A DNA stretch of 64,000 bases from the NCBI GenBank assembly GCA_030602615.1, contig JAUVZM010000001.1:73720-137719 (forward strand), given 5' to 3'. The first letter of the stretch is position 1. Every line of letters begins with the position of its first letter. Positions 12,068-31,979 of this stretch are shown piece after piece. The translations under genes and the position numbers were made by a program. Source of the stretch: a bacterium. GTDB lineage: Bacteria; Armatimonadota; Zipacnadia; Zipacnadales; Zipacnadaceae. Under the pieces are notes generated by a model that saw only the letters and a program-made list of their open reading frames with translations, ran no database searches and was not told the DNA's origin.

Positions 12068-12133
12068 CGCTAGCGAGCAGTTGATTTTGTGATCTATCCG
12101 AACCGGATCAAACTAAGATAGGAGGCACGAATT

Positions 12134-12394
12134 ATGTCATTTGCTGCGGTGTTTGCGGCTGTACTTGGATTAGCTGTACCCATAACAGCTGTGTTCGCGG
12201 CCACCGCTCAGGGTAAGGTAGGCGTCGCGGCGATGGAGGGCATCGCCCGCCAGCCGGAGGCGGCCGGCGATATCGGGCGCAACCTGATTATCACGCTGGC
12301 CCTGATTGAGGCGCTGGTGATCTACGCTCTGCTTACCTTCCTGGTGCTGTTTGGCAACATTCCTCCCTTGATCGAAAAACTCGGCCAGTTGTAG
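12134..12394 (+). CDS. atpE: F0 ATP synthase subunit c
   Basis: 86 aa hairpin. ARQPEAAG loop, ion-binding Glu in LIEALVIYAL. RBS TAGGAGG. Confidence 0.9.
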   Translation: MSFAAVFAAVLGLAVPITAVFAATAQGKVGVAAMEGIARQPEAAGDIGRNLIITLALIEALVIYALLTFLVLFGNIPPLIEKLGQL

Positions 12395-12419
12395 ATACTG
12401 CCAGTGAGGGCTGTCGTAT

Positions 12420-13498: not shown

Positions 13499-13522
13499 AC
13501 TGCCAGAGGTGTTGGCCGCCGT

Positions 13523-15076
13523 TTGCCGTTTGTTGATGAGGTGAACCGGTTGCGGGCAAATGAAACTAACATAACATCTGTGCTTCGCGAGCGAATCGCC
13601 GCCTACGAGCAGGAGTTGAAGGTGGACGAACGCGGGACGGTGATTGCCGTCGGCGACGGCATCGCTCGGGTCTACGGCCTGGAGAAGGTTATGGCCCAGG
13701 AACTGGTGGAGTTCCCCGGCGACGTAATGGGGATTGCCCTGAATTTGGAGGAGGACACCGTTGGCTGCATCCTGATGGGCCCGGACGAGGATATCGTAGA
13801 AGGCGACGTTGTCCGCCGCACCGGTCGTATTGCTGAGACCCAGGTCGGCGCGGGGGTCTGGGGGCGGGTGATGACCCCGTTGGCCGAGCCGCTGGACGAT
13901 CCCGACCGGCCCATTGCGGGCGAAACCACTCGTCCGCTGGAAGTCAAGGCGCCGGGAGTTATCAAGCGCCAGCCCGTCAACGAGCCGCTGTATACCGGCA
14001 TTAAGGTCATTGATGCTCTAACGCCCATTGGGCGAGGCCAGCGCGAACTTATCATCGGCGACCGCCAAACCGGCAAGACCGCCCTTGCTGTTGATACCAT
14101 TATCAACCAGCGTGACAGCAACGTAAAGTGCATCTATGTGGCCATAGGACAGAAGATCTCCACAGTTCGGCGCATCGCTGCCATCTTAGAAGAGTATGGG
14201 GCGATGGAGCATACCTGTATCATCGCCGCCTGTGCCAGTGACCCGGCGGCGCTGCAATATATCGCTCCTTACGCCGGCTGTACCATAGGAGAGCACGAGC
14301 GCAACAACGGCCGCAACGCCCTAATTGTCTATGACGATCTGTCCAAACATGCCAAGGCCTACCGCGAGCTTTCCCTACTGCTGGAACGCCCGCCGGGTCG
14401 GGAGGCTTACCCGGGAGACATATTTAACCTCCATTCCCGCCTGCTGGAACGGGCGGCCAAGATGAGTGACGCAGAGGGCGGCGGGTCGCTCACCGCTCTG
14501 CCCATTGTGGAGACCCAGGAGGGCGACTTTTCGGCCTATATTCCCACCAATATAATCTCCATTACTGATGGGCAGATATATCTGCAGCCGGACCTGTTTC
14601 ACCAGGGAGTGCGTCCGGCAATTAACGTGGGTCTGAGCGTCTCCCGTGTGGGAGGCGCCGCCCAGCCGAGGATGATGCGCCAGGTGGCGGGGCAGTTGCG
14701 CTCGGACCTGGCTACGTACCGCGAGTCAGAGGCTTTCACGCAGTTCGCCGAGGAGCTTGACGCCCACACTCAGCAAATCCTGCGCCGTGGCCAGCGTATG
14801 GTCGAGGTGCTCAAGCAGCCCCAGTACGTCCCTCAGGCTGTCGAAGACCAGGTTATTGCAGTCTTTGCCGGCAGCGAGGGACATTGGGACGAGGCCCCAG
14901 CAGATGCCGTTGATGAGCTTGAAAACGAGCTGATTGAGTTCATTCACGAACAGCATCCTGAAATCATCGAAGAGCTGCGCAACAAGCAGGAACTTGAGGA
15001 AGCGGTGGCGCAGGCGTTGAGTGAGACCATTGAAAGGTTCAAAGCAGAAAGCCCTCACCTTGAAAAGGATGAGTAG
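13523..15076 (+). CDS. atpA: F1 ATP synthase alpha subunit
   Basis: 517 aa. P-loop GDRQTGKT and the canonical alpha-subunit blocks. Confidence 0.95.
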
Positions 15077-15107
15077 GACTGCTGCGTATGATACACAGGC
15101 AGGATAA

Positions 15108-15983
15108 ATGATGGCTCGTAGCCTGCGCGATTTGCGTCGAAAAATCAAGGGCGTCCGGCACATTCGCCAAATCACTCGGGCGATGAAGATGGTGGCCACG
15201 GCCAAGCTGAAGCGCATTCAGCGCACGGTCGAGAACAGCCGGCGCTATCAGGAGGAGTTGCGCTCCCTGCTGGCCGATGTGGCTAGAGCCAGTGTCGAGG
15301 TTGATCACCCCTACCTGCAAGCCCGCGAAGTCGAGCGGGTGGGGGTGATGATTGTCGGCGGCGACCGGGGCTTGTGTGGGGCATTCAATCGTCAGATAGA
15401 CGAGCAGGCGGTCGAGTTCATTGCTGGCCAGTCAGCGCCGGTCGAAGTTATTACGGTGGGCAGGCGCATGCGCCGGTATGCCGACCGGCACGGGCTGGAT
15501 GTCGTGAGCAGTCACGCGGCCGTGGAGCGTGCTGATGCCCCTGATATTGACCAGATCATCGGCGAGGTGCGCTCGTGGTATGAAAGTGGTCATGTGGATT
15601 TGGTGCAGGTGGTCTATGCCCGGTTTGACTCGCTCGTCCGTCACCCGGCAATCAGCGAGCAGCTCCTGCCGATGTCGCCGCAGGCCTTTGCGGAAGCCAC
15701 TGACGATGCCGCCCCCGTGCCTGTTGAATATATCTTTGAGCCGCCGGCTGCCCGGTTACTGGCAGAGCTGCTGCCCCGGGCGCTGGAGGTGGAGATTGCC
15801 CAGATATTGTTGACGACCCAGGCCTCCGGGCAAGCAGCACGCATGACCGCGATGAGTGCAGCTACCGACAACGCTGGCGATATGATCACTGACCTTACTC
15901 GTAGTATCAACCGTGCTCGCCAGGAGGAGATCACCGCTGAACTTCTGGACGTGGTCACCGGCGCGCGGGCCCTGCAGTCCTAA
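15108..15983 (+). CDS. atpG: F1 ATP synthase gamma subunit
   Basis: 291 aa. Conserved N-terminal ITRAMKMVATAKL and C-terminal helix. Confidence 0.9.
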   Translation: MMARSLRDLRRKIKGVRHIRQITRAMKMVATAKLKRIQRTVENSRRYQEELRSLLADVARASVEVDHPYLQAREVERVGVMIVGGDRGLCGAFNRQIDEQAVEFIAGQSAPVEVITVGRRMRRYADRHGLDVVSSHAAVERADAPDIDQIIGEVRSWYESGHVDLVQVVYARFDSLVRHPAISEQLLPMSPQAFAEATDDAAPVPVEYIFEPPAARLLAELLPRALEVEIAQILLTTQASGQAARMTAMSAATDNAGDMITDLTRSINRARQEEITAELLDVVTGARALQS

Positions 15984-16022
15984 GTGGCCGGCAGCCGAGC
16001 ATTTAAGGGACGAACGATATAG

Positions 16023-17411
<1,389 letters not shown>

Positions 17412-17443
17412 CTTACCCCTGGGGGAATGGGCAGGTTAAGCGT

Positions 17444-17866
17444 ATGGCGTCTGCGCCTGCATTTGTCACCACAATCGTCACCCGCAATGGGGAGTTGTTC
17501 GCGGGTGATGCAATAAGCACAATTGCCCCCGGCCAGGAGGGGTACTTCGGCGTGAAGGCCAATCACGCCCCGTTTATGGTCGCGCTGGGCATAGGTGAGC
17601 TCCGAGTCACTACCCCGGACAACCAAAATCACTATTTCGCCATTGCTGGTGGGGTAGCTGAGGTGCAGGACAACGCCTTGGTGGTGCTGGCCGATACTGG
17701 CGAGCGAGCGCTGGATATTGATGTCGCTCGGGCCGAAGAGGCCGCCGAGCGGGCGCGGACACGCCTATTCGGTGAAGGACCCGAAGAAGAGGTAGAACTC
17801 ACCCGGGCGGAGGTGGCTCTAACCCGGGCCATGAATCGCCTGCGCGTCGCCCGCCACGGGCGGTAG
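17444..17866 (+). CDS. atpC: F1 ATP synthase epsilon subunit
   Basis: 140 aa. Beta-sandwich plus helical hairpin. Last gene of the operon. Confidence 0.9.
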   Translation: MASAPAFVTTIVTRNGELFAGDAISTIAPGQEGYFGVKANHAPFMVALGIGELRVTTPDNQNHYFAIAGGVAEVQDNALVVLADTGERALDIDVARAEEAAERARTRLFGEGPEEEVELTRAEVALTRAMNRLRVARHGR

Positions 17867-17897
17867 TTGCATCGTTGTAGTGCTCCTTGTTTGTCGC

Positions 17898-17925
17898 GGC
17901 AGGAATGCCGCTCCTACCGGTTTGG
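17898..17925 (+). terminator. Intrinsic terminator after the atp operon (same hairpin sequence as 507..535)
   Basis: GGCAGGA-atgccgc-TCCTACC then GGTTTGG. Identical at 27 of 28 nt to the hairpin at 507..535. Confidence 0.5.
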
Positions 17926-18060
17926 CAATAGTTTCGTTCTGTTCATCTTGCCGGCAACAAATAGACCCCTGAGAAGGAGATAGGGCGCAGCTTAGAGAAG
18001 GGGCTATTGTGGCTTGGAATATCACTGCGAAGGCTAAAGCCTGTATAAGGGGGTTCCAAC

Positions 18061-18876
18061 ATGCAATGGGGACTTGAAAACCGTTTGGCGCAGATTATTC
18101 GACCGGAGACGGGCCGAACCGTGATGCTGGCTATTGACCACGGTTACTTCCAGGGGCCGACTACCGGCCTGGAGGAACCGGGAAAAACCGTCGCACCGCT
18201 TCTGCCCTATTGTGACGCGCTCAGCCCGACCAAGGGGATACTCCAATACTGTATCGATCCGCTGACCGCTCCCCCGATTATCCTGCGGGTCTCGGGCGGC
18301 AACAGTATGGCCCGGCGCGACGAGTTGGACGATGAAATCCTCACCTGCACCATTGAGCAGGCTGTTGCGCTTAATGCCGTCGGGGTATCAATCTCGATAT
18401 ACGTCGGTACCGAGCATCAGCGCCAGACAATACAGAATCTGGCGACAATGGCCGACGAGGCCCACAAGTACGGCCTGGTGGTCCTGGGGATCAGTGCAGT
18501 TGGCGCGAGCCTGGGCGAGTTGCGCGAGCCGGGCAAGGAGCAGGAGTTCGCCCGCTATTTGGCCCTGGCCAGCCGCATCGCCGCCGAACACGGTGCTGAC
18601 ATCTCCAAGACTTACTACGTGCCCGGCCATTTTGATAAAGTGGTGGGCGGCTGTCCTATCCCTATTGTGCTCGCCGGCGGCAAGAAAGTGCCGGAGGCCG
18701 AGGCGCTTGAATTCTCCTACAACGCCATTCAAGACGGTGCCTCCGGCGTTGACATGGGCCGCAATATCTTCCAGGCGGAATCACCGGTGGCTATGATCCA
18801 GGCCGTCCGCGCTGTTGTGCACGAGGGCAAGGCATCCGAGGAAGCCTACGAATTGTACCAGAGCCTGGCCAAATAG
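18061..18876 (+). CDS. Class I aldolase of the DhnA/LsrF/FbaB (DeoC-LacD) family
   Basis: 271 aa. LAIDHGYFQGP signature, with a TIM-barrel aldolase Lys region. Confidence 0.65.
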   Translation: MQWGLENRLAQIIRPETGRTVMLAIDHGYFQGPTTGLEEPGKTVAPLLPYCDALSPTKGILQYCIDPLTAPPIILRVSGGNSMARRDELDDEILTCTIEQAVALNAVGVSISIYVGTEHQRQTIQNLATMADEAHKYGLVVLGISAVGASLGELREPGKEQEFARYLALASRIAAEHGADISKTYYVPGHFDKVVGGCPIPIVLAGGKKVPEAEALEFSYNAIQDGASGVDMGRNIFQAESPVAMIQAVRAVVHEGKASEEAYELYQSLAK

Positions 18877-19936: not shown

Positions 19937-20046
19937 GCTGCCCGCTAGTTGGCGATGTGGTGTCGTCTGTTATTGTGCCTTCGCGGCTTGACAGCAGCCG
20001 TCAACTCTGGGAAAATGGAATAGGAAACAATAGCTTTGGCAGGAGG

Positions 20047-21453
20047 ATGGTTCAAGTGACGAGATGGATGAGAATTGCGGTAGTATTGCTCGCTGCAGCA
20101 GTAGTGGCCGGCTGCGGGGGCGGCCCGAGCTCCTCTCGACAGACCAGTCGCCAGCAGCTCACCATTCGCGGCACCAGCTTTCCGCAACAGCTAGAGCCAG
20201 CCAGCCAGGTGAGCGTCTATGAAGACGACTACAACGGCTGGCCAGCGCTGTTTATGAAGAATGGTCTGGTCACGGTAGTGGCAGTGCCGGCCATCGGCGG
20301 TCGGATTATGGAGTACAACCTGGGCACTCACCCCTTCCTGTGGGTCAACGACGCTGAATTTGGTAAGACCTATGACCCACCCAAGACAGAGGAAGAGCGA
20401 CGGTGGCACAACTATGGTGGGTACAAAGTGTGGCCGGCCCCAGAGAGCCGCTGGGACGGGCCGCCTGATCCGTTGGGCTCGGCTCTGGATGGCGGAAAGT
20501 GGACTGGCGAGATCACTGCCCACGGTGGCCAGATTGGGGAGATTGAGCTGGTCAGTCCCGCTGACGAGAACGTGACGGGTTTGCAGATTAAGCGGAGAGT
20601 ACAGATGTTTGCTGGTACTACCCAGGTAGTGGTTACCGAGACCTTCGAAAACGTAAGCGCCGAGCCGATTGAATGGAGTATCTGGGGAGTCACCCAGGTC
20701 CGCGGCTCGCTGTCCAGCAGCGAAAAGTTCAGTGAACAGGCCCGCATCTACTTCCCGCTGAATCCCGACAACCGTGCCTCGAAGGGCTTCTGGTATTTGA
20801 CCAAAGGTCCGTCGGATCAATTTCAACTGCTCGACGATGGGAAGCTGATGCAGGTCTCTTACGGCTTTGAGACCAGCAAAATCGGCGCAGACGTAGCTGA
20901 CGGCTGGATGGCTTACGTTGACGATATTCACCAGTATGCTTTTGTCCAGCGTTTTGAGGAGCGGAGCTTGAGCGAATATCCCGACCAGGGCGCGAACGTG
21001 GAGGTATATACCTCGGGTGAAGAGTTCGCCCATATGGAGATGGAGACACTCAGCCAGTTATACACCCTCCAGCCCGGCGAGACGAAATCCTACTCTCAAC
21101 AGTGGTATGCCACCAGCTTGCCAGGACCGGTTCGCGATACCACCGAGCTGGCGGCTATCCGCGAGCCGTTGCGCCTGGAAAGTGTGGAGGCGGGATTGCA
21201 GCTTACTGGCGAGCTGGGCATATTTGCGCCAGGAACCCTTGAGGTCGTCCTGACTGACAGTGCAGGGAGACCTATGGGCGAGCCGGTGGCTGCGATCACA
21301 GTCAGCCCAGCACAGACAGTGGTGTTGGACCAGATTGTAACGCCGCAGCCAGAGGCGTCGGCACTGGTCCTGAGACTGGTCAACGACTGGGACACACCGC
21401 TGGGCGAGGTAGCCAGCGTCTCGTTGGCGACCCAGACCGCGCAGGCCCCCTGA
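20047..21453 (+). CDS. Secreted lipoprotein, possibly DUF4380 / mutarotase-like fold
   Basis: Lipobox LLAAAVVAGCGG after an AGGAGG RBS. GGRIMEYNL motif and a beta-rich sequence. No catalytic assignment possible. Confidence 0.45.
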   Translation: MVQVTRWMRIAVVLLAAAVVAGCGGGPSSSRQTSRQQLTIRGTSFPQQLEPASQVSVYEDDYNGWPALFMKNGLVTVVAVPAIGGRIMEYNLGTHPFLWVNDAEFGKTYDPPKTEEERRWHNYGGYKVWPAPESRWDGPPDPLGSALDGGKWTGEITAHGGQIGEIELVSPADENVTGLQIKRRVQMFAGTTQVVVTETFENVSAEPIEWSIWGVTQVRGSLSSSEKFSEQARIYFPLNPDNRASKGFWYLTKGPSDQFQLLDDGKLMQVSYGFETSKIGADVADGWMAYVDDIHQYAFVQRFEERSLSEYPDQGANVEVYTSGEEFAHMEMETLSQLYTLQPGETKSYSQQWYATSLPGPVRDTTELAAIREPLRLESVEAGLQLTGELGIFAPGTLEVVLTDSAGRPMGEPVAAITVSPAQTVVLDQIVTPQPEASALVLRLVNDWDTPLGEVASVSLATQTAQAP

Positions 21454-21635
21454 ATCCGATGGTAAAGACCCGCATTTACCATTTGTCACTGGGAGGTAAG
21501 AGAGCTGGATGAGGCCCTGGGCTTGACCGAGTTAACGGGGCTTACGCCGGTAGCGGGTGACTATGCCCTTACTGCGGCGAAGGATCGGTGGTGTTGCGTA
21601 TGCCCAGGCGGGATTGTCTCTGCTATCGCCCCAGC

Positions 21636-21669
21636 GCTGTCATACTTGTTCAATTCGGGGCAGAATCCC
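21636..21669 (+). promoter_or_regulatory. Conserved promoter module (copy A): CTGTCA, 18-nt spacer, CAGAAT
   Basis: 31 of 34 nt identical to 30322..30355, and matches the inverted copy at 26741..26771. RBS GAGGTGG and ATG 21683 follow. Confidence 0.55.
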
Positions 21670-21682
21670 AGAGGTGGACGAA

Positions 21683-24304
21683 ATGTACAATGCCAAAGCA
21701 ACAGTGTTTTTGGCAACTCTGATGTGTGCAGTAGGACTGACAATATGTGAGGCGTACACCGAGAGCTTCCCCGGGGGGATCTTGGGGCCACGGCAATCAC
21801 AGATCCCGGCGGCGCAGTGGACGAAGGCCGAGTTAGACAAGGGGTACGTGGTCTTCACGCATAGCACCTTGGAGGGCCTTCAACCCGACTACGTGCCCGC
21901 GCGGAGAGCGGTCGTCGGCAAGGTATCCTGTGCCCTGGCCCAGGGTGAGTACAAGTCCGTGCAGATCGGCGTCCACTCGCTGACCGGAGGCCTTCAGAGC
22001 GTGCGCCTGGAGCTTGAATCGGACCTGGAGGCCAGGATATACCGCTCCATTGACGGGGAGACGAGGAAGCTGCTTCTGGGATATGAGAACCCCGTGCCTG
22101 ACTCGATCCATGCCGTGTGTCTGGACGAGTCGAGCCGGATCGCCTCGATCGAGAAAGGGAGCACCTCCTTTTTCTGGGTGACCCTTCATGCAGAGGAGAA
22201 CGCCACTGCAGGCAAGCACCGTGGCAAGATGCTTATCCGACCCGCGGGCAGGCCTGCCACGGAACTGGATCTGGAGGTGACCGTAAGGCCCTTCAAACTC
22301 CAGCGCGCCAGAATTGCCTACGCTCCGTTCTTCTACGTGGAGTGGAAGCCGGGGGCGCTCCCCAAGTTCGCCCAGACCGACGAGTGGATCGGCGCCTTCT
22401 TCCGCGACATGGCCGAGCACTCGCACACCTCCGTCATCATACACGGCGCGGGATTCGTGGACTTCTCCAGGCTCCCCCCTCCGGAGAACCGGTACTTCTC
22501 TACGCTGCTCCCTCTGGCCAAGCAGGTGGGTCTGACCAGCCCCGGCATCCCCATCATCGTTATGGACCACAACATGGCCCGGAGGCAAGACCAAGGCGGG
22601 ATGGAGACCGTGGAGCAGAGGAATGCGGCTATGGACTGGTACGAGGCAGAACGGCGCAAGCACGGCTGGCCGGAGATCGCCGCTTATGGCCAGGATGAAC
22701 CATCTTATCCGCATCCTGTTGTTCGGAGGAACTGGGAGTGGTTCCGCGATGTACGGATGCGGCTAGCCACCGCGTTGTTTGCCCCGGCAGCGTACGGGTT
22801 CGGAGATTTCCACGATATCTGGATTGTGATTGGGGGAAGTATCACGCAGGAGATGGTCGCGGAGGCCGAGCGGATGGGCGCGGAAGTGTGGACCTACATC
22901 TGTACGCCCATGTCCAACAATCCCCTGCACGAACGCCACTATGCAGGCCTGTACGTCTGGGCATACGGATTGAAAGGTCATACCACGTGGCATCACTATG
23001 ACGGGGGCGAGTTCAAGCTCGTGTGGATGCGGGAAGGCGACCAGCGCCCGATGCCGCTGGTCGGGTGGGAGACCCGTCGCGAAGGCGTTGACGACTACCG
23101 TTATCTGCAGATGCTGGAGGACTGCGTTGCGGCCCAGCCGGGCAATCCCCTGGCCGCTGAGGCGAAGAAGTGGATAGCCGGCCTGCGCGCCCGAATCGTC
23201 ACAGCGGATCCCTACATCCGAAACGTTCCTGGAAAGCCTTTGGCCCTGGATGAGTATGACCGTATCCGCGAGAAAGCGGCGGGGTACATCCAAAGGTTGG
23301 GTCCAGTACCGGCGGACCGGATTCCCCCGAGTCCACCCACACGCCTGAAAGACGAGGCGAAGCTCTTCCGAGGCAAGCCCGTGCAAGAGTGCATCGCCGG
23401 CCTCAGGAGCACGCAGGCCTCCACCCGTCGCGCGGCAGCATGGGCTCTGTTCGAAAAAGGCTGGCAGGCCGCCCCGGCTGTGCCAGCTCTGACGGACTTG
23501 CTGGACGACACCGATGTGCGCATACCGGCGTTGCGGGCGCTGGAGGCGATCGGGCATGAGAGCCGCCCGGCCCTGCCGAAACTGACAGCGCTCCTGAAAC
23601 ATCCGGACGGGTTCGTGCGACTGGGCGCCATTCACGCCCTGGGCGCCATCGGAGCACCTTCCATTCATGCGCTGATGCAAGCGACGGGAGACGAGTATTG
23701 GCCAGCCAAGTGCCGTGCCGCGAACTACATGCCGTGGATGGCAGGACAAGCAGCTCTGCGATCGGCGATGCCCGCCGTGCTGCCGGTCCTGATCAAGCTA
23801 CTCGACGATCCTAGCCCGAATGTGTGGACGTCGACTTTGTGGGCCTTCGAGCTCATCGGCCCGGAAGCTGCGCCCGCCGTGCCGCACATCATCAGGCTCA
23901 TACAGGGAGTTGTCCCAACTACCCGTCTCCGCTACCATAAACGCTGGACCGATGCACTGGCAGCCATCGGACCCGGAGCGGCGCAAGCCGTACCCATGTT
24001 GGAGGAGTTCCGCAAGGACCACGGCTCTTCAGATCCGCTCGCGGAAGCCTATGCGTTAAACGCGCTGTACAGAATCAGGGGCTCGCCGGAGGACCTCCAC
24101 GCGCTCGTCGCCCTGATCAGCGGCGCCGGAGAGGGACCGATAGACGCATCCGCGGCCCTGCAAAAGCTGGAGGAACTGGGCAGCGAGGCGAGAGACGCCG
24201 CGCCCCAGATCCGGGAGCTGATCGCTCAGGGCGGCCTGAGCGACGACGTGAAGAAGCGGCTTGAGGCAGTCCTCGATTCGATAGCCGCCCCGGCCGGCGA
24301 GTGA
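21683..24304 (+). CDS. Secreted GH123-like (DUF4091) putative beta-N-acetylhexosaminidase fused to C-terminal HEAT/PBS-lyase-like repeats
   Basis: Signal peptide MYNAKATVFLATLMCAVGLTICEA. Central region is paralogous to ORF 26984, sharing the G.DEPS motif, WTY.C block and REGV(D/E)DYR(Y/L)L motif. The C-terminal ~300 aa are repeated AAPAVPALTDLLDD / ALRALEAIG HEAT-like units. Start set to ATG 21683; the tool ORF starts at 21557. Confidence 0.6.
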   Translation: MYNAKATVFLATLMCAVGLTICEAYTESFPGGILGPRQSQIPAAQWTKAELDKGYVVFTHSTLEGLQPDYVPARRAVVGKVSCALAQGEYKSVQIGVHSLTGGLQSVRLELESDLEARIYRSIDGETRKLLLGYENPVPDSIHAVCLDESSRIASIEKGSTSFFWVTLHAEENATAGKHRGKMLIRPAGRPATELDLEVTVRPFKLQRARIAYAPFFYVEWKPGALPKFAQTDEWIGAFFRDMAEHSHTSVIIHGAGFVDFSRLPPPENRYFSTLLPLAKQVGLTSPGIPIIVMDHNMARRQDQGGMETVEQRNAAMDWYEAERRKHGWPEIAAYGQDEPSYPHPVVRRNWEWFRDVRMRLATALFAPAAYGFGDFHDIWIVIGGSITQEMVAEAERMGAEVWTYICTPMSNNPLHERHYAGLYVWAYGLKGHTTWHHYDGGEFKLVWMREGDQRPMPLVGWETRREGVDDYRYLQMLEDCVAAQPGNPLAAEAKKWIAGLRARIVTADPYIRNVPGKPLALDEYDRIREKAAGYIQRLGPVPADRIPPSPPTRLKDEAKLFRGKPVQECIAGLRSTQASTRRAAAWALFEKGWQAAPAVPALTDLLDDTDVRIPALRALEAIGHESRPALPKLTALLKHPDGFVRLGAIHALGAIGAPSIHALMQATGDEYWPAKCRAANYMPWMAGQAALRSAMPAVLPVLIKLLDDPSPNVWTSTLWAFELIGPEAAPAVPHIIRLIQGVVPTTRLRYHKRWTDALAAIGPGAAQAVPMLEEFRKDHGSSDPLAEAYALNALYRIRGSPEDLHALVALISGAGEGPIDASAALQKLEELGSEARDAAPQIRELIAQGGLSDDVKKRLEAVLDSIAAPAGE

Positions 24305-24528
24305 GAAATCAGCAAAATAATCTTCCAGATGGTGGAGGTGGCAGTATCCAGGGAGCTCTTTGAGCAAGTATTGGGACGAATCTGGGCCTTAACGCCCGGC
24401 ACTGGGTGACAGTGCCGTCGGCGACGGGATTATTGATAGTTAGTGTCTGGCGCAGGCCAGCCCTCACTGGAACGTGGGCTAAGTGCGATAGTGGCGCTTG
24501 AATTCTGTGACTATCTTGTTAAAACCAC

Positions 24529-26613
24529 TTACTCTCCCGCTACTGGCATCCACACGCGCATTGCGGAATCGGCGCGATTAGCCCAGGCATAATAGGGAAT
24601 AGCCGTCACCAGGACTTTGTCCCTACGCATTGTGGGTCGCGTACCTAGCGGATGATAGAGGGGACTGTTCTCCGGGGCATAGCAAACTGGCAAGGCCCGC
24701 CGGCGCAGGACGGTCACGCCGCCCAGCAGGTCGGGCTGCCACTCAGGCCGGAAGCCGCCCTCCGGGTCTGGCGTCTCGAAGACCAAGGCCAGGTCAGCCA
24801 GAACCGTGTCGGGATTATCTACACTCTCAAAGCAGTAGACTAACGGGCCACGCTGCAACGCCACACAGCCCCGGTTCTCCGCCACACGTGGATGGCTTTC
24901 CATTATTCGCACCGGCATTGGTAACTGCAGGCGGACCGTATCTCCGGGCCGCCACCGGCGTGTAAGCTTTAGATAATTGCCAGGCTCAATGGCCGCAGAC
25001 AATGGCTCATCATTCACCGCTGCCGCGGCTCCTGCTGCCCAGCCCGGAATGCGGAGGAAGAGAGTGAACTGTGCAGGTTGTTGCAAATCTAACGCGATTT
25101 CAATCTCGCCCTCCCCCGGGTACTTAGTGTCCATCTTCAGTGTGACTCGGGGGCCGTCGGGTACAGGGAGCGTGGCCTGGCAGGTATCGTAAAGGTGCAC
25201 CCAGAGGCCCTGGCGGCTGGTACTGAAGAGGTAACCGGGAACAGCCGCCAGCGTACGGTGGATGTTGGGGGGGCAGCAGTTGCACGGGAACCAGGACTGC
25301 CGCTGGTAGCCGCCGTCCGAGGCCAGCGGGTTGCCGTAGAAGTATTTGCTCCCGTCCAGAGATACGCCGGACAGAAAGCCATTGTATAGAATCGTCTCCA
25401 TCACATCCGCATACTGGGCCTCGCCCGTCAGCAGCAACATGCGCCAGGCCCACATTGCGTGCGCGATCTGTGCACAGCTCTCGGCATAGGCCCAGGTGAG
25501 TTCGTTATAGTGCGCCCGCGGTCCAGGGAAATACCCCCATCGTCCCCCGTGTTGTGAAGGCCGTGTACCGGTGGTGTCGGCCCAGGCGTTAGGCAGCTCG
25601 TACCGCTCACCGAAAGACTCGCCGCGAGCCCCCATGCCACCAGTGATGTAGATCTTACCTCCGACTAAGTCCTGCCACAAGGACTGCAGGTTGGCCCACA
25701 TCTGCTCGTCGCCAGTTTCAGCATAATAGTCAGCTCCGCCACAGCAGAGATAGCCGGACCGGACGGCGTGACCTACCACGATGCGATTGTTTAGATATTG
25801 GGACTGGCCCAAGAAGAAGGCAGCGAGGTCCCAATAGCGCGTCCTACCGGTGGTGCGGTACAGTTCGATCAGGGCCATTTCCACCTCGGGATGTCCGGGG
25901 GCGGCCTCGATTTTTCCGGGGCCAAACTCCTGGCATATATAATCAGCGAGGCGGCAGGCCACTTGCAGCAAACTGTCCTGGCCGGTGGCCCGGTAGTAGG
26001 CAATCGCCGCCTGCACTAGATGCCCGGCGCAGTACAGCTCATCGGGGCAAGTGTTGAGGAACAAGCGGCCGTCTTCGCCCTGGGCGGCTGCGATGTCGTC
26101 AATAATTGCTGCCACCGTTTGCCGCAGTTCAGGCAGATCCTGCGACTGGAGAGCCCAGGAGACCCCCTCCAGCCACTTATACAGGTCAGATTCGCTGCCG
26201 TAAGAAGCGTCCCGGAATTCAACCTGCTTGCGTCCGGACAGGCGCCGGAAATTATCCACCACCCCATGCTCCTCCATTAGACGTAGGAAAGTGGGCATTC
26301 CCTCCTTGGCATTGGCCTCCATTCGCGGCCGCCAAAAGCCTGGCCCCATTGCTACCGCCCGGATCGGCACCGATTGCAACCGAAACTGCGACCCCCGGCG
26401 GGTATCGACAACGCCGCCTTGTTGCCACTGGTCCTCCGGTTGTAGTTCCCTATCTTCGACAATGCCGCCGTTGGGGTCAAAACCTGTGCGTGCCACGACA
26501 CCCTCAGGCACCGGTCTGAAGGCTGGTTTAGCTTTTCCTGCACGAATCACGCTAACAAGCAATGCGCAAACACCAACTAGCACCAACAAGTCAGACAGTC
26601 TCATGTTCTTCAC
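24529..26613 (-). CDS. GH127 (DUF1680) beta-L-arabinofuranosidase-like glycoside hydrolase
   Basis: 694 aa. N-terminal signal anchor. GH127-type GFWRPRMEANAKEGMPTFLRLMEEHGVVDNFRR block and Cys-rich catalytic region. GTG start. Confidence 0.75.
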   Translation of the reverse strand: MKNMRLSDLLVLVGVCALLVSVIRAGKAKPAFRPVPEGVVARTGFDPNGGIVEDRELQPEDQWQQGGVVDTRRGSQFRLQSVPIRAVAMGPGFWRPRMEANAKEGMPTFLRLMEEHGVVDNFRRLSGRKQVEFRDASYGSESDLYKWLEGVSWALQSQDLPELRQTVAAIIDDIAAAQGEDGRLFLNTCPDELYCAGHLVQAAIAYYRATGQDSLLQVACRLADYICQEFGPGKIEAAPGHPEVEMALIELYRTTGRTRYWDLAAFFLGQSQYLNNRIVVGHAVRSGYLCCGGADYYAETGDEQMWANLQSLWQDLVGGKIYITGGMGARGESFGERYELPNAWADTTGTRPSQHGGRWGYFPGPRAHYNELTWAYAESCAQIAHAMWAWRMLLLTGEAQYADVMETILYNGFLSGVSLDGSKYFYGNPLASDGGYQRQSWFPCNCCPPNIHRTLAAVPGYLFSTSRQGLWVHLYDTCQATLPVPDGPRVTLKMDTKYPGEGEIEIALDLQQPAQFTLFLRIPGWAAGAAAAVNDEPLSAAIEPGNYLKLTRRWRPGDTVRLQLPMPVRIMESHPRVAENRGCVALQRGPLVYCFESVDNPDTVLADLALVFETPDPEGGFRPEWQPDLLGGVTVLRRRALPVCYAPENSPLYHPLGTRPTMRRDKVLVTAIPYYAWANRADSAMRVWMPVAGE

Positions 26614-26983: not shown

Positions 26984-28765
26984 ATGAGAATGATTGCCAA
27001 CGACTTGCGGTGTTATGTCATATGGATGCTGGCGGGTGTCTGGTGCGTGGCACTGATGACAAGCGCGTTCGCGGCGGCTGAGCAAGCCGACCGGGTCATG
27101 AACTGGCGCCAATATCCCACTCCTTACGGGACGCCCGCCACGGCCCGCCCGCCGGACGAGGCGTTCTTGAAGGTCATACCGCCCTTGAAGACACTGGGTA
27201 CCATCAGTGACGAGGCGAAGGAGTTGGGGGTCGCCGTCTGGTGGGCCGACTACGGGCAGAATGTCTTTTGCGAGCAGCCGCCGACCGACGAGGACCTCGC
27301 GCGCAAGGGCGCAATCCGCACGAGCGCGGGCGAGGACGAGCCGTTGGTCCTGGCGCTGTGGGGGCTCGACGACGTGGGCAATGCGACGCTTAGCGCGAAC
27401 GCCCCGGTCTTCCCGGTCACGATCCGCAAAGTGGAGTTTGAGCCCCGGTACATCCCGGGCGACTACCGGGACTATCACATCGACGGTGGGCGCAAGGTGG
27501 GCATTCCCACGTATCTGCCGGAAGAATCGAGCGTCGTGGTGAAGGCTGGCGAGAACGCGCCGTTCTGGGTGACGGTGTCCGTGCCCGAGGACGCCGCGCC
27601 CGGGACTTACGAGATTCCGTTCCGGTTGATCCTCACGGACGCGAACAAGGCCGTGACGCTCGCGGTCACGGTCGAGGTGCTGCCGTTCGAGCTGCCGCGG
27701 GCGAAGATCGCCTACGGTATGTATTTTCGCCCCTCGGCGAAGACGCTCGAGAACCCGCGCGACCGCACGCCGGAGCGGCTGCGTTTCTACTGGCGAGATA
27801 TGGCACGTCATGGCATGACAAGTGCGACCCTCTACAACTACACTCGCCTGCACGATCCTGAGGGGAATCTCAATCTCCACACCGTGCCGGTGCTGGGGTG
27901 GCTTGAGGAGATGATCGAGGAAGGGCTCGTCACGCCGGACGTGCCCGTCATGTACCTGGACGGCGGCGGGATCGACCTGGCGAACCCCAAGACGCCGGAG
28001 ATCCTCGCCTCGCTCAAGGAGGAGATCGCCGAGCGCGGCTGGCCGGAATTCCTCTACTACGGGCCCGACGAGCCGTCGGTCAATGACAAGGGCTGGGCGG
28101 ATTTCGAACGCCTGCAGCCCTTGCGCGAGTATTTTCGCGTCGTCACCGCGATCGGCGATCACGCGGTAAACGCGTATGCGGATTTTCTGGATGTTTATAT
28201 CGTGAACGCCGGTTGCACGAGCCCGGAAATGTACAAGCTGGCTGCCGACAAGGACGCGGAGCTGTGGACCTACACATGTCACAATCGAGGGCGAAGCAAT
28301 GCGCCGTTCCAGCGATACTACGCGGGCATTTTCACGTGGGCGCTGCGCCTGAAGGGAAACTTCATGTGGGCTTACACCGAGAACTATACGCGGGAAAAGG
28401 GTCAGTATCTTCCCTGGTCTCCGCTGTACTGTTACGTGGTTCCCAGCGACGAAGGAGCGATCCCGTCGATCGCCTGGGAAGTCCGCCGGGAGGGTGTGGA
28501 GGACTATCGCCTGCTTACGCTCCTGGAAGAACAGATAGCGAAGAATCCTGACAACACGGTCGCTGCCGAAGCGAGAGACTGGCTGGAGCAACTGCGCGGG
28601 CGCGTTGACTGGTATATCGCGCGCGACATGCCACCGTCGCTGTATCCGTGGGACGGTCCAGAACTCTATCCGCTCTGCCCGAACTTCGAACCGGCGGAGT
28701 TCTCGAAGATCCGGGCCAAGGTGATCGATTACATTCTTCAGTTGAGCAGCGCCGCCGGCGGCTAG
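26984..28765 (+). CDS. Secreted GH123-like (DUF4091) protein, paralogue of 21683
   Basis: 593 aa. Signal peptide. Shares the LPRAKIAYG, YGPDEPS, WTYTC and REGVEDYRLL blocks with the 915-aa protein. Confidence 0.6.
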   Translation: MRMIANDLRCYVIWMLAGVWCVALMTSAFAAAEQADRVMNWRQYPTPYGTPATARPPDEAFLKVIPPLKTLGTISDEAKELGVAVWWADYGQNVFCEQPPTDEDLARKGAIRTSAGEDEPLVLALWGLDDVGNATLSANAPVFPVTIRKVEFEPRYIPGDYRDYHIDGGRKVGIPTYLPEESSVVVKAGENAPFWVTVSVPEDAAPGTYEIPFRLILTDANKAVTLAVTVEVLPFELPRAKIAYGMYFRPSAKTLENPRDRTPERLRFYWRDMARHGMTSATLYNYTRLHDPEGNLNLHTVPVLGWLEEMIEEGLVTPDVPVMYLDGGGIDLANPKTPEILASLKEEIAERGWPEFLYYGPDEPSVNDKGWADFERLQPLREYFRVVTAIGDHAVNAYADFLDVYIVNAGCTSPEMYKLAADKDAELWTYTCHNRGRSNAPFQRYYAGIFTWALRLKGNFMWAYTENYTREKGQYLPWSPLYCYVVPSDEGAIPSIAWEVRREGVEDYRLLTLLEEQIAKNPDNTVAAEARDWLEQLRGRVDWYIARDMPPSLYPWDGPELYPLCPNFEPAEFSKIRAKVIDYILQLSSAAGG

Positions 28766-29111: not shown

Positions 29112-29289
29112 CCCCGTCAGAAGTCTTCTAATCTCGGGTCTTTCTAGCTAATTGATTCGCATCCGGAGGAATTAGTGCAGGAAATAGAGAATGTCAAACG
29201 TAGTAACAAACGATATGAGAGACCCCAGTTCACTGTCATCCAGGCATTCCTGGTGCTCTGGCTCGACTAAGGGGGAAAGGAATAACGCT
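29112..29289 (+). promoter_or_regulatory. Conserved leader + uORF cassette (copy 1, lacks the -35/-10 module)
   Basis: CCCCGTCAGAAGTCTTCTAATCTCGGGTCTTTCTAGCTAATTGATTCGCATCCGGAGGAATTAGTGCAGGAAATAGAGAATG, about 90 % identical to copy 2. The uORF ATG at 29191 (MSNVVTNDMRDPS...) runs in frame into the PIG-L gene. Confidence 0.55.
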
Positions 29290-30198
29290 ATGTCTAAAAG
29301 ACCGCTCGTAGTCGAGAATATTCTGCCGGACGAAAACATTAACATCCTGGTCGTTGGTGCGCATCCGGCTGATGCGTTTGATGATATCGGCGGCACGCTG
29401 GCCCATCACGCGGCCCGGGGCGATCACATCACCGCCTTAATCCTGACACACGGAGCGCGTGTCCACGATGTGGTCTTGACCGATGAGGTGGGCCAGCGCG
29501 AGCGCGCTCCCACCCGCGAGGAACTGGAGCCCATCATCGAGGAGCGCACGAGCGTGAAGCACCAGGAAGTCCTGGAAGCCTGCCAGATTCTAGGGTTCTC
29601 CGACTTGCGCTTCCTCACCTACGACGACAGCGTCCTGACCCTAAAAGAGGAGCTCATGCAGAGGATCGCTAAAGTCATTCGAGAGGTGCAGCCGCATCTC
29701 CTCATTACTCACTATCCCCTCGAAAGCGGAGGCATCGCCAGCCACCATGCTATCACGGGCCAACTGGTCCTCAATGCCGTGGGGTCGGCCTCCAGAGTCT
29801 CGCCTGAAGACCCTAACCCCCCATGGGGGGTGCCCGAGGTCTATTTCAAGGCCATCCATACGGCACTGGCGAGGCCAGACGTGCTGAGTCACGCTACTGC
29901 AGGCTTTGCCAATGTCTATGTGGACGTCACCGACGTCATCGAACTCTTAGTCAAGGCTCTGGACAAGATGAAGAGCCAACAGTACAACGGTGCCTGGGCC
30001 CGTAAATCCCGCGAGGTGTACGAGGGCGTCTTTGGCCTCAATGTCGGTGTCGCCTACGCCGAAGCGTTCATCCGCCTTAGGGCACAAGTCTGCGATTACC
30101 TGCCCCTCTCACACTATGCCATGGCAAGGGCTAACGAGCTTGAAGCCACTGAGCACCGTCGCCAGAACCTCCTAGTGTGCCATACAGTGCCTGAATAG
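29290..30198 (+). CDS. PIG-L / LmbE-family N-acetylglucosaminyl deacetylase
   Basis: ILVVGAHPADAFDDIGGTLAHH (HPDD-type motif) and the H..H zinc region. RBS AAGGGGGAAAGGA before ATG 29290. The tool ORF starts at the upstream in-frame ATG 29191. Confidence 0.7.
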   Translation: MSKRPLVVENILPDENINILVVGAHPADAFDDIGGTLAHHAARGDHITALILTHGARVHDVVLTDEVGQRERAPTREELEPIIEERTSVKHQEVLEACQILGFSDLRFLTYDDSVLTLKEELMQRIAKVIREVQPHLLITHYPLESGGIASHHAITGQLVLNAVGSASRVSPEDPNPPWGVPEVYFKAIHTALARPDVLSHATAGFANVYVDVTDVIELLVKALDKMKSQQYNGAWARKSREVYEGVFGLNVGVAYAEAFIRLRAQVCDYLPLSHYAMARANELEATEHRRQNLLVCHTVPE

Positions 30199-30554: not shown

Positions 30555-31979
30555 TTGGAATTGATTACTTTCCGCCTCGACGGTGGGTTCACGGAAGCCC
30601 AACTGGATCAGGTATACAGCGAAACTTTCCAGGTACTTGAGGAAATCGGCGTGGAGGTCGGCGACGACGAGATTCGTCAGTATCTGGGAGAGTTACCGGG
30701 CATCTCCGTGCGAGGCACACGGGTCTGCTATGCCCCCAGCCTGGTGAAAGAATGGATCGAAGTCATCAAAGAGGACAATCTTGAGTACGCTTACAACCGC
30801 AAAGACGGCCGCATCCGGATGGTCGGACCGTACATGGGACAGTACTATCACGACCCAGACACCGACGAGGTGCGGCTAGCGACCGGGGCGGATATGAGCC
30901 TTGCGGTGAAGCTGTGCGACGCCCTTGACTTCTACGGTCCCTCGCCGATCCACCTGCAGACCGTCCCTCCACCTGTTCGCCAAGTGACGACCTTCAAGAT
31001 CTGTGTGGAGAACAGCCGAGAAGTCGGTGGCTGGGGGCCGGCGGCCACCGAGAAGGACGGATACTGGCTGTGCCAGATTGGTGAAGCGGCAGGGCGCCAG
31101 CCTCCGCACTGCTGTATGGAGATCCCCATCAGCCCCCTGCGGCTCAACCACAAGGCTCTACGGATGATTTACAATCGCCGTAATCAGGATGATCAACTGA
31201 CCGGCATGGTACTGGGCGGCGGGGTTGTGCCGATGCCTGGAGCAACGGCGCCCATCTTTGCGCCAGCCTGCTTTATCCAGAGCATGGCCGAGGCCCTGGC
31301 CGCCTACATCACCCCTCAGTTAATTGATCCCCGAGTGCAGGGGTACTGCTCGTTCGGCGGTAAGCTGTTCGATCTGCGGCGTATGACCCCAAGTATTATG
31401 TTTCCCGAGACTGCCCTGTACACCAGCTTGGTCCGGCAGGTCATTCAGCGTTTCTTAGGTGAGACGATGGGCGGTCAACTCGCCGATGTGGGTATCATGA
31501 AAAGATTCGAAGACTACAGTGTGGACGGGTTTGGCAGCCCACAGGCCACCCTTGAGTTGGGCTTCCGCATAGCCCTGGACATCCTGGCCGGTGCGCGCAC
31601 CTTCCTGGGAGTAGGTGGGTACGGTGATGGCTTCTGTCCCGTGACGGCGGTTATTGAGGCCGACCTGGTGAACCACTTTACTAAATTCATTGCTGGCTGC
31701 GCATACCGTTATGAACCCGGGATCAATCTACGCACTATGACCGAGGCCCTGGAGGACAAAAACTACCTGGCGCATCCCACGACGCTAGAGTATCGTGAGC
31801 TGTATCTAATCCCAGAGTTGGTCTTCAGGCATGACACGCGCCCGGAACTGGTCGCCGCCGCTTGGGAGAAGGCCCAACAGATAGTCGCCGAGCACGACTA
31901 TGCGCTGCCCGAGGACGTACAGCGCAACGTCACAGAAGTCTACGAAGCGGCGTGTGCAGACCTACTGGAAGGGAAGTAG
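30555..31979 (+). CDS. MttB-superfamily methyltransferase, non-pyrrolysine member (quaternary-amine:corrinoid methyltransferase-like)
   Basis: 474 aa, TTG start after GGGAG. PMPGATAPIFAPACFIQSMAEALAAYIT resembles the MttB GATAP...AGxL block. No in-frame amber codon. Confidence 0.55.
   Translation: MELITFRLDGGFTEAQLDQVYSETFQVLEEIGVEVGDDEIRQYLGELPGISVRGTRVCYAPSLVKEWIEVIKEDNLEYAYNRKDGRIRMVGPYMGQYYHDPDTDEVRLATGADMSLAVKLCDALDFYGPSPIHLQTVPPPVRQVTTFKICVENSREVGGWGPAATEKDGYWLCQIGEAAGRQPPHCCMEIPISPLRLNHKALRMIYNRRNQDDQLTGMVLGGGVVPMPGATAPIFAPACFIQSMAEALAAYITPQLIDPRVQGYCSFGGKLFDLRRMTPSIMFPETALYTSLVRQVIQRFLGETMGGQLADVGIMKRFEDYSVDGFGSPQATLELGFRIALDILAGARTFLGVGGYGDGFCPVTAVIEADLVNHFTKFIAGCAYRYEPGINLRTMTEALEDKNYLAHPTTLEYRELYLIPELVFRHDTRPELVAAAWEKAQQIVAEHDYALPEDVQRNVTEVYEAACADLLEGK

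Follow-up and report, generated by a model that had tools for sequence, protein, structure and literature searches.

Gene organization and integrity of the fusion

The target gene occupies positions 21683..24304 on the forward strand (+) of the window, the 64,000-nucleotide stretch of DNA that was analysed, and encodes a GH123-like glycosidase with a HEAT tail (873 aa, stop codon 24302-24304). From the N-terminus, the protein consists of a signal-like segment, a β-sandwich, a (β/α)8 barrel, a helical domain, a linker and about nine HEAT repeats. The uninterrupted open reading frame in the ORF list extends over 21557..24304 (+); translation from the ATG at 21683 gives the 873-residue product, and translation could alternatively begin at an in-frame GTG (21557, +). 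A protein from another assembly (P0001) that is 92% identical to the target has a Met start at the same position. Matches in a promoter and terminator scan around the gene were no commoner than in shuffled sequence.

The upstream neighbour (19957..21453, +) encodes a DUF4380 (mutarotase-like) protein whose N-terminal segment is hydrophobic, and is syntenic in the related contig L001, which also bears a gene 92% identical to the target. Downstream lie a convergent gene for a GH127 β-L-arabinofuranosidase-like protein (24529..26613, -), a tail-less paralogue of the target (26984..28765, +) and, in the same cluster, a PIG-L family N-acetyl-sugar deacetylase-like gene (29191..30198, +). At another locus of the family, L082, the neighbours include GH78, GH5, BNR sialidase-like, DHDPS/NanA-like, GHL10, GH39 and GH130 genes and more GH123_cat genes. 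GHL10 proteins, sugar-type oxidoreductases and sulfatases recur as neighbours across the family loci.

The earlier note had described one fused reading frame, and had named a missed stop near 23.3 kb, a frameshift or an assembly artefact as what might undo the fusion. The frame is continuous across the junction and contains no stop around 23.3 kb. The complete 873-residue protein was recovered with 100% identity in an independent assembly (SRR14872667), and full-length relatives at 90-92% identity are present in other datasets. The same junction is found in at least 134 homologues, down to ~30% identity, from about six phyla. In the AF2 model of the target (mean pLDDT 90.7, pTM 0.90), the junction between the catalytic and HEAT parts, for which structure prediction had been proposed, has a pLDDT above 90. 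The continuous frame, the independent identical copy, the syntenic contig and the conserved junction rule out a frameshift or assembly artefact, and the chance that two separate genes were joined by an overlooked stop, a frameshift or chimeric assembly is next to nil. The catalytic part and the HEAT tail form a real, conserved fusion.

Putative signal peptide

The N-terminus of the target (residues 1-24, MYNAKATVFLATLMCAVGLTICEA, followed by Y25; 21683..21754, +) reads as a putative Sec signal peptide, with a lysine at position 5, a hydrophobic stretch (residues 6-21) and C-E-A preceding Y25. This assignment is heuristic and was read from the sequence, in a region (residues 1-40) where the pLDDT is low. 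By a simple hydrophobicity heuristic, a hydrophobic N-terminal 11-mer is present in 83 of the 97 full-length homologues. The target is probably exported, in keeping with its earlier description as a secreted protein; alternatively, the N-terminal segment could serve as a membrane anchor.

Catalytic unit

The catalytic unit consists of an N-terminal β-sandwich (residues 55-205; 21845..22297, +), defined by AF2 secondary structure and by profile alignment to 8k2j, a (β/α)8 barrel (residues 206-460; 22298..23062, +) and a C-terminal helical domain (residues 461-540; 23063..23302, +) with the motif W-E-x-R-R-E-G-x-D-D-Y-R-Y. The target thereby matches the superfamily architecture of a β-sandwich followed by a (β/α)8 barrel with the DUF4091 region (PMC11087588). 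Pfam GH123 models match the target below threshold (E 0.03-0.05), with 13.4 bits for PF13320 (GH123_cat) against a cut-off of 23.1, a PDB search with the N-terminal 560 residues as a single sequence gave no significant match (best E 0.13), and NCBIfam held no informative family for either the target or the paralogue. A family profile built free of HEAT sequence matches 8k2j (2.7e-15), 8k2f (1.9e-9) and BvGH123 (3e-6), and fold searches also recovered a GH123-like fold, which upholds the assignment of the N-terminal region made in the earlier note.

A predicted catalytic Asp-Glu pair, D338/E339, lies in the motif YGQDEPSY (22694..22699, +; codons verified). It aligns with the DE motif of BvGH123 and with D353/E354 of NgaDssm, the experimentally defined catalytic pair of that enzyme (PMC11087588), and is kept in 47 of 48 family members. 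Nine residues of GH123-superfamily enzymes were reported to be invariant and needed for folding (PMC11087588). Among the positions compared, Y422, G457 and W461 of NgaDssm (Y392, G427 and W431 of NgaLy; PMC11087588) correspond to the barrel substrate-site residues Y405 (47/48), G432 (48/48) and W436 (47/48) of the target, and the N-domain tryptophan (W150 of NgaDssm, W115 of NgaLy; PMC11087588) corresponds to W165 in the β-sandwich (47/48). All four residues are retained in relatives with the tail (n = 134) and without it (n = 45).

At least two of the residues that link the N-domain to DUF4091 appear to differ. In characterised enzymes, a Tyr and an Arg of DUF4091 (Y466 and R478 of NgaLy; Y494 and R505 of NgaDssm), reported as invariant and needed for solubility, hydrogen-bond with an N-domain Asp (D95 of NgaLy; D131 of NgaDssm) (PMC11087588). 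In the profile sequence alignment, Y494 falls on R450 of the target, in a column of R, L, P or A, and R505 falls on G461 (G in 35/48). D131 aligns with A144 in a mixed E/D/A/G column, but the local alignment begins here and its register is least secure at this point; the nearby column 148 has Asp in only 18 of the 48 members. As judged from these alignments, at least two residues of the Asp-Tyr-Arg structural triad are missing from the target. The non-conserved equivalents of Y494 and R505 thus place the clade outside the characterised groups, and its members could differ in specificity.

These observations bear on an alternative in which the protein is not a β-N-acetylhexosaminidase, but a glycosidase of another specificity or a lectin-like protein with no catalysis, and the HEAT tail is its main functional part. 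The sub-threshold Pfam matches, the low identity to the closest solved enzymes (12-18%) and the loss of Tyr and Arg from the triad, with its Asp uncertain, would all suit such a protein. Moreover, the characterised superfamily groups differ in specificity, and NgaMg, a characterised Group 1 protein, was inactive on all substrates tried (PMC11087588). However, retention of the Asp-Glu pair, and of Y405, G432 and W436 in relatives with and without the tail, speaks against a pseudoenzyme. The gene neighbourhoods also contain many glycosidases, and the PIG-L deacetylase, sialidase-like and NanA-like neighbours suit amino-sugar glycans. We consider this alternative quite improbable; the catalytic unit is probably an active glycoside hydrolase of the GH123/DUF4091 superfamily.

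Tail-less paralogue

The paralogue encoded in the same cluster (593 aa) scores above the Pfam cut-off for GH123_cat (36.2 bits for PF13320) and carries the motif GPDEPS. It shares 31% sequence identity with the target over residues 148-540 (BLASTP, E 1e-49). The proposal that the first ~600 residues of the two proteins are paralogous therefore holds as to the relationship, but the pairwise alignment spans only ~390 residues; in a joint alignment with the paralogue, invariant columns are found in the β-sandwich (P72, E89 and W165). The paralogue and its relatives (~530-590 aa) have the same catalytic unit and DEP motif as the target. In contrast to the target, the paralogue ends directly after the C-terminal helical domain, without the linker motif or HEAT repeats, and does not have the clade-specific residues E394, R397, W497 and Y535. 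It apparently shares the absence of the Asp-Tyr-Arg triad. The idea that the HEAT tail offsets the loss of the triad was therefore rejected, since the tail-less protein is likewise without it.

Linker and HEAT tail

The catalytic unit is followed by a conserved, non-helical linker (residues 541-566; 23303..23380, +) that was delimited from column counts and the translation. It contains the motif L-K-D-E-A-x-x-F-R-G-K, in which E558 is invariant, and is modelled as coil with a pLDDT of 91-98. The remainder of the protein is an α-solenoid of paired antiparallel helices, the whole of which superposes on alphaRep and armadillo solenoids in fold searches. All four Pfam HEAT models exceed their cut-offs on the tail, with units of ~31 residues (HEAT_2, HEAT, HEAT_PBS), and the tail matches alphaRep at E 6e-55 and CpcE at 2.6e-9. 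Its identification as PBS-lyase-type HEAT repeats is thereby confirmed.

Repeats R1-R3 (residues 567-659; 23381..23659, +), assigned from the Pfam and alphaRep matches, are canonical PBS-type units. The distal repeats R4-R9 (residues 660-873; 23660..24301, +) are degenerate, HEAT/armadillo-like, and in the AF2 model they extend the helical solenoid without a break. When a unit HMM made from R2 and R3 was used to count repeats, it was strong only for these two and gave partial matches to R5, R6 and R9, with zero matches on shuffled tails. R4, R7 and R8 are recognized by structure only. As the unit HMM recovers few distal units, the distal repeat count rests on the AF2 model. The earlier count of at least six units is thus exceeded at the structural level (about nine), but by sequence only R1-R3 are canonical, three units are partial and three are not seen.

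R1-R3 are the most conserved part of the protein, with a column identity of 0.63-0.71 compared to 0.39-0.51 for R4-R9 and 0.53 for the barrel; the value for R1-R3 is partly inflated by the many consensus structural residues of canonical HEAT units. These three repeats are present in every tail class and domain variant. Tail lengths fall mainly into two classes (~100-150 aa and ~300-350 aa), and the distal repeats are missing or shortened in some relatives. In three proteins (P0084, P0100 and P0102), the catalytic part and R1-R3 are followed by a GH2_N sugar-binding domain, and in P0017 a GH2_N domain follows the full tail. In the sequences compared, the linker and R1-R3 are a constant, very conserved unit, and the distal repeats are variable and exchangeable.

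Proposed interface between the tail and the catalytic unit

Residues conserved only in tailed proteins are densest in the C-terminal helical domain (Q476, W497, P519, Y535 and G540), and others are located in the barrel (T388, E394, R397 and A400). The overall pTM of 0.90, the confidently modelled linker coil, the invariant E558 and this pattern of residue conservation suggest that the linker and R1-R3 may be rigidly docked on the catalytic unit. An inter-domain disulfide bond between C570 (47/48) and C83 (41/48) was considered as well and was rejected, since seven sequences have C570 without C83.

The usual ligands of HEAT and armadillo solenoids are proteins or extended peptides, and designed armadillo proteins that bind peptides, together with alphaRep binders, are among the closest solved matches to the tail. 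The tail could thus be a protein-protein docking module that makes no contact with the substrate, and that either tethers the various paralogous enzymes to one shared scaffold or envelope protein, in the manner of dockerin and cohesin, or oligomerises. R1-R3 exceed the barrel in conservation even across multi-copy paralogues (five in tandem at L081), which a common partner would explain. In addition, by-eye mapping to the alphaRep consensus places several family-conserved residues (R582/R583, W587, P615, R618, H640 and F/Y644) at sites of its hypervariable binding surface. The conserved surface could equally be explained by an intramolecular interface, however, and no partner gene conserved beside the family was found for the tail, the commonest neighbour family (GHL10, an enzyme) being present in only 12 of ~80 loci. 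The sugar-binding-type domain that takes the place of the distal repeats in some members also points to substrate targeting. Taken with these observations, protein docking as the role of the tail appears unlikely.

Family distribution

Of the 179 proteins fetched whose catalytic part is complete, 134 have the HEAT tail, in answer to the question raised earlier of whether orthologues keep the solenoid; the other 45 are tail-less. In the examples listed, the tail starts ~16-25 residues past the end of the catalytic match. The tailed members, at least 134 in number, come from Planctomycetota, Lentisphaeria, Latescibacterota, Armatimonadota, Poribacteria and Verrucomicrobia, are derived from uncultivated, largely marine bacteria, and are often present in multiple copies per genome; the five tandem copies at L081 belong to a member of the Latescibacterota. 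The closest named relatives of the target are from metagenome-assembled genomes (MAGs) of Planctomycetota (53-54% identity). Hundreds of clusters formed at 50% identity have a match to the catalytic domain, and the catalytic-domain clusters number 1374.

Where names are given by the source, they refer at most to HEAT repeats ('HEAT repeat domain-containing protein', 'hypothetical protein') and never to a glycosidase. A literature search found no paper naming GH123 together with HEAT repeats, and among solved structures none spans both parts (Foldseek, query-normalised TM-score of 0.40 or less). The suggestion that this architecture is undescribed is borne out to that extent, but the architecture is not rare, as the size of the tailed clade indicates.

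Proposed function

Our preferred reading of the whole protein, which we hold to be rather probable, is that of an active, exported glycosidase of β-HexNAc type whose HEAT tail combines a docked, constant adaptor with a variable arm for binding. The enzyme would most likely cleave a β-linked N-acetylhexosamine by substrate-assisted retaining catalysis, as in the solved β-N-acetylgalactosaminidases and β-N-acetylhexosaminidases, and may release GalNAc from chain ends or an oligosaccharide that contains it. The role of D338 would be to orient the 2-acetamido group of the substrate, E339 would act as acid/base, and the sugar site would be lined by Y405 and W436. The linker and R1-R3 would form the constant adaptor, probably seated against the C-terminal helical domain and against the helix of the barrel in which E394 and R397 lie. 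R4-R9 would be the variable arm that places the enzyme on a polymeric substrate or target surface, by analogy with a carbohydrate-binding module (CBM), which is replaced or extended in some relatives by a sugar-binding domain of GH2_N type. The suggestion in the earlier note that the tail might dock carbohydrate or protein is plausible. The gene lies in a chromosomal cluster of glycan-degrading genes.

In a more far-reaching form of this proposal, which we regard as doubtful, the solenoid would be an unrecognised substrate-targeting module of exported glycosidases, an α-solenoid equivalent of CBMs or a glycoprotein-binding one, in a large GH123-like clade with which uncultivated, mostly marine Planctomycetota, Lentisphaeria, Latescibacterota and others attack β-HexNAc glycans and which folds without the Tyr-Arg (and probably Asp) contacts.

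If the glycosidase prediction itself is correct, the catalytic fold would tolerate the loss of supposedly essential Tyr-Arg structural contacts, the GH123 superfamily would reach beyond the groups defined in 2024, and Planctomycetota, Lentisphaeria and Latescibacterota would have a larger predicted repertoire for glycan degradation. Because the database names are HEAT or hypothetical only, CAZyme surveys of bacteria that degrade marine polysaccharides miss this whole clade of probable glycosidases. As an accessory module of an exported glycosidase, a conserved HEAT solenoid would be unusual and a candidate binder of glycans or glycoproteins, and the alphaRep-like R1-R3 unit is a natural, enzyme-fused example of a protein-engineering scaffold.

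Comparison with known systems

The closest characterised enzymes are the DUF4091 β-N-acetylgalactosaminidases NgaDssm (Group 3, PDB codes 8K2J and 8K2K) and NgaCa (Group 1, PDB code 8K2F) (Sumida et al. 2024, PMC11087588). They share with the target the β-sandwich followed by a (β/α)8 barrel, the Asp-Glu pair at the aligned position and the equivalents of W150, Y422, G457 and W461. However, the sequence identity is only 16-18%, the target is below the PF13320 threshold and, in the aligned sequences, it differs from both in the Tyr and Arg of the triad, its Asp being uncertain. The classical GH123 exo-β-N-acetylgalactosaminidases CpNga123 (PDB code 5FQE) and BvGH123 (PDB code 5L7R) are more distant (12-13% identity), although their DE motif aligns with that of the target and a substrate-assisted retaining mechanism would be expected by homology. 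They originate from gut or soil Bacillota and Bacteroidota, whereas the target family is found in uncultivated, largely marine Planctomycetota, Lentisphaeria, Latescibacterota and other MAGs. Neither has a solenoid tail, nor does any other characterised GH123-superfamily enzyme carry a HEAT solenoid.

R1-R3 closely match the ~31-residue PBS-HEAT consensus seen in alphaRep (PDB codes 4ZV6 and 3LTM), the phycocyanin lyase CpcE (PDB code 5N3U) and MTH187 (PDB code 1TE4). These proteins are stand-alone scaffolds or lyase subunits, whereas in the target a probably exported glycosidase carries the solenoid as its C-terminal module, and the distal repeats of this solenoid are degenerate. Recognised CBMs mostly have β-sandwich folds and, to our knowledge, no α-solenoid HEAT module has been classified as a CBM. 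The modular organization is nevertheless similar: as in glycoside hydrolases with CBMs, the catalytic domain of the target family is followed by a non-catalytic C-terminal module of varying length, and in some relatives a GH2_N-type domain is found instead of, or after, the distal repeats.

Integrity of the fused gene

The target protein is encoded by a single uninterrupted ORF in the window (21557..24304, + strand), with the ATG at 21683 giving an 873-residue product (21683..24304) from which residues are numbered here. The earlier note had allowed that the fusion of a GH123-like region to HEAT repeats might be an artefact, such as a missed stop near 23.3 kb; no stop or change of frame was found there. 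An independent read-set assembly (SRR14872667) encodes the identical 873-residue protein beside the same GH127 gene, and a syntenic 27-kb contig from SRR24954018 carries a gene that is 92% identical to the target. A frameshift or misassembly is therefore excluded.

Fold and homology of the catalytic region

The earlier claim that the first ~600 residues are paralogous to the tail-less ORF 26984..28765 (+ strand, 593 residues) holds as to homology (31% identity, E 1e-49, BLASTP), but the pairwise alignment is confined to residues 148–540. The Pfam models GH123_N and GH123_cat reach only E 0.03–0.05 on the target, and GH123_cat scores above its cut-off on the paralogue. Two alignments were constructed, one of 48 full-length homologues (A1) and one of the catalytic region without HEAT repeats, paralogue included (A2). 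A HEAT-free profile matched NgaDssm (8K2J, E 2.7e-15), NgaCa (8K2F, E 1.9e-9), BvGH123 (5L7R/5L7V, E 3e-6) and a Niabella beta-GalNAcase (8P4L/8Q8H, E 2e-5), which bears out the GH123-like reading of the N-terminal region.

The AlphaFold2 model of the target, built on A1 (mean pLDDT 90.7, pTM 0.90), consists of a beta-sandwich (residues 55–205), a (beta/alpha)8 barrel (about residues 206–460), a helical domain (residues 461–540), a coil linker (residues 541–566) and a helical solenoid (residues 567–868).

Conserved residues and superfamily membership

The DUF4091/GH123 superfamily, defined as Groups 1–4 plus GH123 by Sumida et al. 2024 (PMC11087588), is marked by a beta-sandwich and barrel, by a catalytic Asp-Glu motif, and by another seven residues that do not vary; Supplementary Table 8 of that paper gives their numbering in each enzyme. 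Among these, an Asp-Tyr-Arg structural triad is reported to be invariant and essential for solubility in the characterised enzymes; in NgaLy, the alanine mutant of each triad residue was insoluble (PMC11087588).

NgaDssm residues were mapped onto the target through the HEAT-free profile alignment to 8K2J, and the register was checked with the help of the numbering of the chain and of the primers published for mutagenesis of the HLADEPVRT motif. D353/E354, W150, Y422 and W461 correspond to D338/E339, W165, Y405 and W436 of the target (each kept in 47/48 sequences of A1), and G457 to G432 (48/48); thus, all catalytic and substrate-site invariants are retained. The fold of the target is of GH123 type, and its Asp-Glu pair and sugar-site residues are intact. 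From the structural triad, by contrast, at least the Tyr and the Arg are apparently not kept in the target clade, as judged by alignment: Y494 aligns with R450 (23030-23032) in a mixed column, and R505 with G461 (23063-23065), a glycine in 35/48 members. The equivalent of D131 is uncertain: A144 (22112-22114), with which it aligns, lies close to where the alignment begins and in a column of mixed residues. The tail-less paralogue apparently also misses the Tyr and Arg, so that their loss belongs to the wider clade and is unconnected with the tail. In place of the triad, R465/R466, E463 and D470/D471 are invariant. The target is best regarded as a divergent superfamily member outside the characterised groups, and is not assigned to GH123 proper.

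The HEAT tail

The C-terminal third of the target matches HEAT_2 (3.6e-17), HEAT, HEAT_EZ and HEAT_PBS above the curated Pfam cut-offs. A search with the A1 profile gave matches to alphaRep, which was designed on the PBS-HEAT consensus (E 6e-55), to the phycocyanin lyase CpcE (2.6e-9) and to MTH187, and the tail is thus of the proposed PBS-lyase type. The earlier note counted at least six units; the model displays a continuous solenoid of about nine (R1–R9). R1 (residues 567–597), R2 (598–628) and R3 (629–659) are canonical by sequence; an HMM built from R2 and R3 matched R5, R6 and R9 only partially, and gave zero matches on shuffled tails.

Mean column identity is 0.63–0.71 for R1–R3, 0.66 for the C-terminal helical domain, 0.56 for the beta-sandwich, 0.53 for the barrel and 0.39–0.51 for R4–R9. 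The tail therefore comprises a constant R1–R3 unit and a variable distal arm. The linker, though coil, is modelled with pLDDT 91–98; within it the motif L555-K556-D557-E558-A559-x-x-F562-R563 is conserved, and E558 is found in 48/48 members. Several positions conserved in R1–R3 (R582/R583, W587, P615, R618, H640, F/Y644) are ones that we take, from our own mapping to the alphaRep consensus, to correspond to hypervariable binding-surface sites of alphaRep.

Cysteines occupy position 570 (23390-23392; first helix of R1) in 47/48 members and position 83 (21929-21931; beta-sandwich) in 41/48. An obligate C570–C83 disulphide is unsupported, the two cysteines showing no strict co-variation.

Distribution and domain variants

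The full-length search returned 145 homologues (34–92% identity), most of 850–900 residues with HEAT_2 matches. An exhaustive search with the N-terminal 560 residues, without the tail, gave 1374 clusters at 50% identity (E <= 1e-3), 75 of them at E <= 1e-30. Whether orthologues keep or lose the solenoid, a point raised in the earlier note, was assessed with separate catalytic-part and tail HMMs run over all fetched proteins: the tail is present in 134 of the 179 with a complete catalytic part, beginning in the listed examples ~16–25 residues past the end of the catalytic match. C-terminal extensions cluster at 0, about 100–150 and about 300–350 residues; distant, paralogue-like relatives (<= about 30% identity) have no tail. 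In three homologues (P0084, P0100, P0102) the catalytic part and R1–R3 are followed by a GH2_N-type sugar-binding domain, which in P0017 follows a full tail, and P0073 has extra N-terminal FG-GAP/ASPIC domains. These variants confirm that the tail is modular. The GH123-type unit and PBS-type HEAT solenoid form a genuine, ancient and conserved fusion.

Among GTDB representative genomes the family was found solely in MAGs, many of them from marine samples and several with multiple copies. The hosts are Planctomycetota (Planctomycetaceae, Pirellulales, Lacipirellulaceae, Phycisphaerae), Lentisphaeria, Latescibacterota, Armatimonadota (Ca. Zipacnadia), Poribacteria and Verrucomicrobia; the nearest named relatives of the target are from Planctomycetota MAGs (53–54% identity). 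A Latescibacterota contig (ctg361704, locus coordinates 3882-18805) contains five tandem head-to-tail GH123-like and HEAT paralogues of 845–867 residues, adjoining a DDE transposase; apparently the gene family has undergone a striking expansion at this locus.

Genomic context

The target lies in ordinary chromosomal DNA (dnaE, hisD, ATP synthase operon, aroA, dinB, ribBA), within a small glycan cluster in the order DeoC-type aldolase, Zn-dependent dehydrogenase, DUF4380, target, GH127 (convergent), tail-less paralogue and PIG-L deacetylase. The DUF4380 protein (19957-21453, +), upstream of the target, weakly matches the TTE1925-type mutarotase family and, close to its N-terminus, has a lipoprotein-like arrangement of a hydrophobic segment and a Cys after it; its gene is syntenic in the related contig L001. 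There, a GFO/IDH/MocA oxidoreductase gene (13237-14325) separates the 92% identical relative from GH127, and is missing from the matching interval of the window (24305-24528). Genes of the GFO/IDH/MocA type also adjoin family members in 8 other loci.

Directly downstream of the PIG-L deacetylase is an MTTB-family (trimethylamine methyltransferase-like) gene (30555-31979, +), and after it comes a gene whose product has a GNAT acetyltransferase domain (31983-32930, +). Elsewhere in the window are a 754-residue ORF that partially matches YjbH, a family of outer-membrane proteins of exopolysaccharide biosynthesis (52444-54708, -), and a second domain-of-unknown-function gene besides DUF4380, encoding a DUF4432 protein (43322-44431, -; full-length match, E 3e-95).

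Other members lie among GH78, GH5, BNR sialidase-like, DHDPS/NanA-like, GHL10, further GH123_cat, GH39 and GH130 genes (locus L082), or have BNR_2 and GHL10 neighbours. In L082 (7422-17082), four consecutive GH123-like genes, two of about 850–875 residues and two of about 720, one shorter protein having a CBM4_9 domain, form part of a polysaccharide-utilisation-type cluster, flanked by sialidase-like, NanA-like, GH78, GH5, GH39 and GH130 genes. Recurrent neighbours across about 80 loci are GHL10 (12), GFO/IDH/MocA (8), aldo-keto reductases (8), SDRs (7) and sulfatases (4).

Proposed mechanism

Catalytic residues are conserved alike in tailed (n = 134) and tail-less (n = 45) members, which were compared by position. 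Sixteen positions are conserved in tailed members only; they are ~2x denser in the helical domain (Q476, W497, P519, Y535, G540), and four lie in the barrel at residues 388–400 (T388, E394 at 100%, R397 at 98%, A400). By this sequence comparison they are candidate contacts for docked R1–R3.

The protein would be exported via an N-terminal signal peptide, predicted heuristically, and by homology it probably hydrolyses a beta-linked N-acetylhexosamine by a substrate-assisted retaining mechanism (PMC11087588). The pTM, pLDDT and conservation suggest that the linker and R1–R3 dock rigidly, both on the helical domain and on barrel residues around E394/R397. The distal arm may have a targeting role, as judged by its exchange with a sugar-binding-type domain in some relatives. 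The main rival reading is that R1–R3 could be a protein-docking handle common to many paralogues; high conservation across the paralogues speaks for it, whereas it is weakened by the finding that no obligate or conserved partner gene emerged from the about 80 member loci.

Comparison with known systems

The architecture is, as first suggested, undescribed: no paper mentioning GH123 together with HEAT repeats was found, profile and fold searches found no solved structure joining the two modules, and in their source annotations the homologues are named at most as 'HEAT repeat' or 'hypothetical' proteins. Each module is already familiar on its own, and the chemistry is likely that of the known superfamily. 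The finding is a solid annotation-level discovery, and would be of greater importance if the solenoid turned out to target substrates as a module of a new type.
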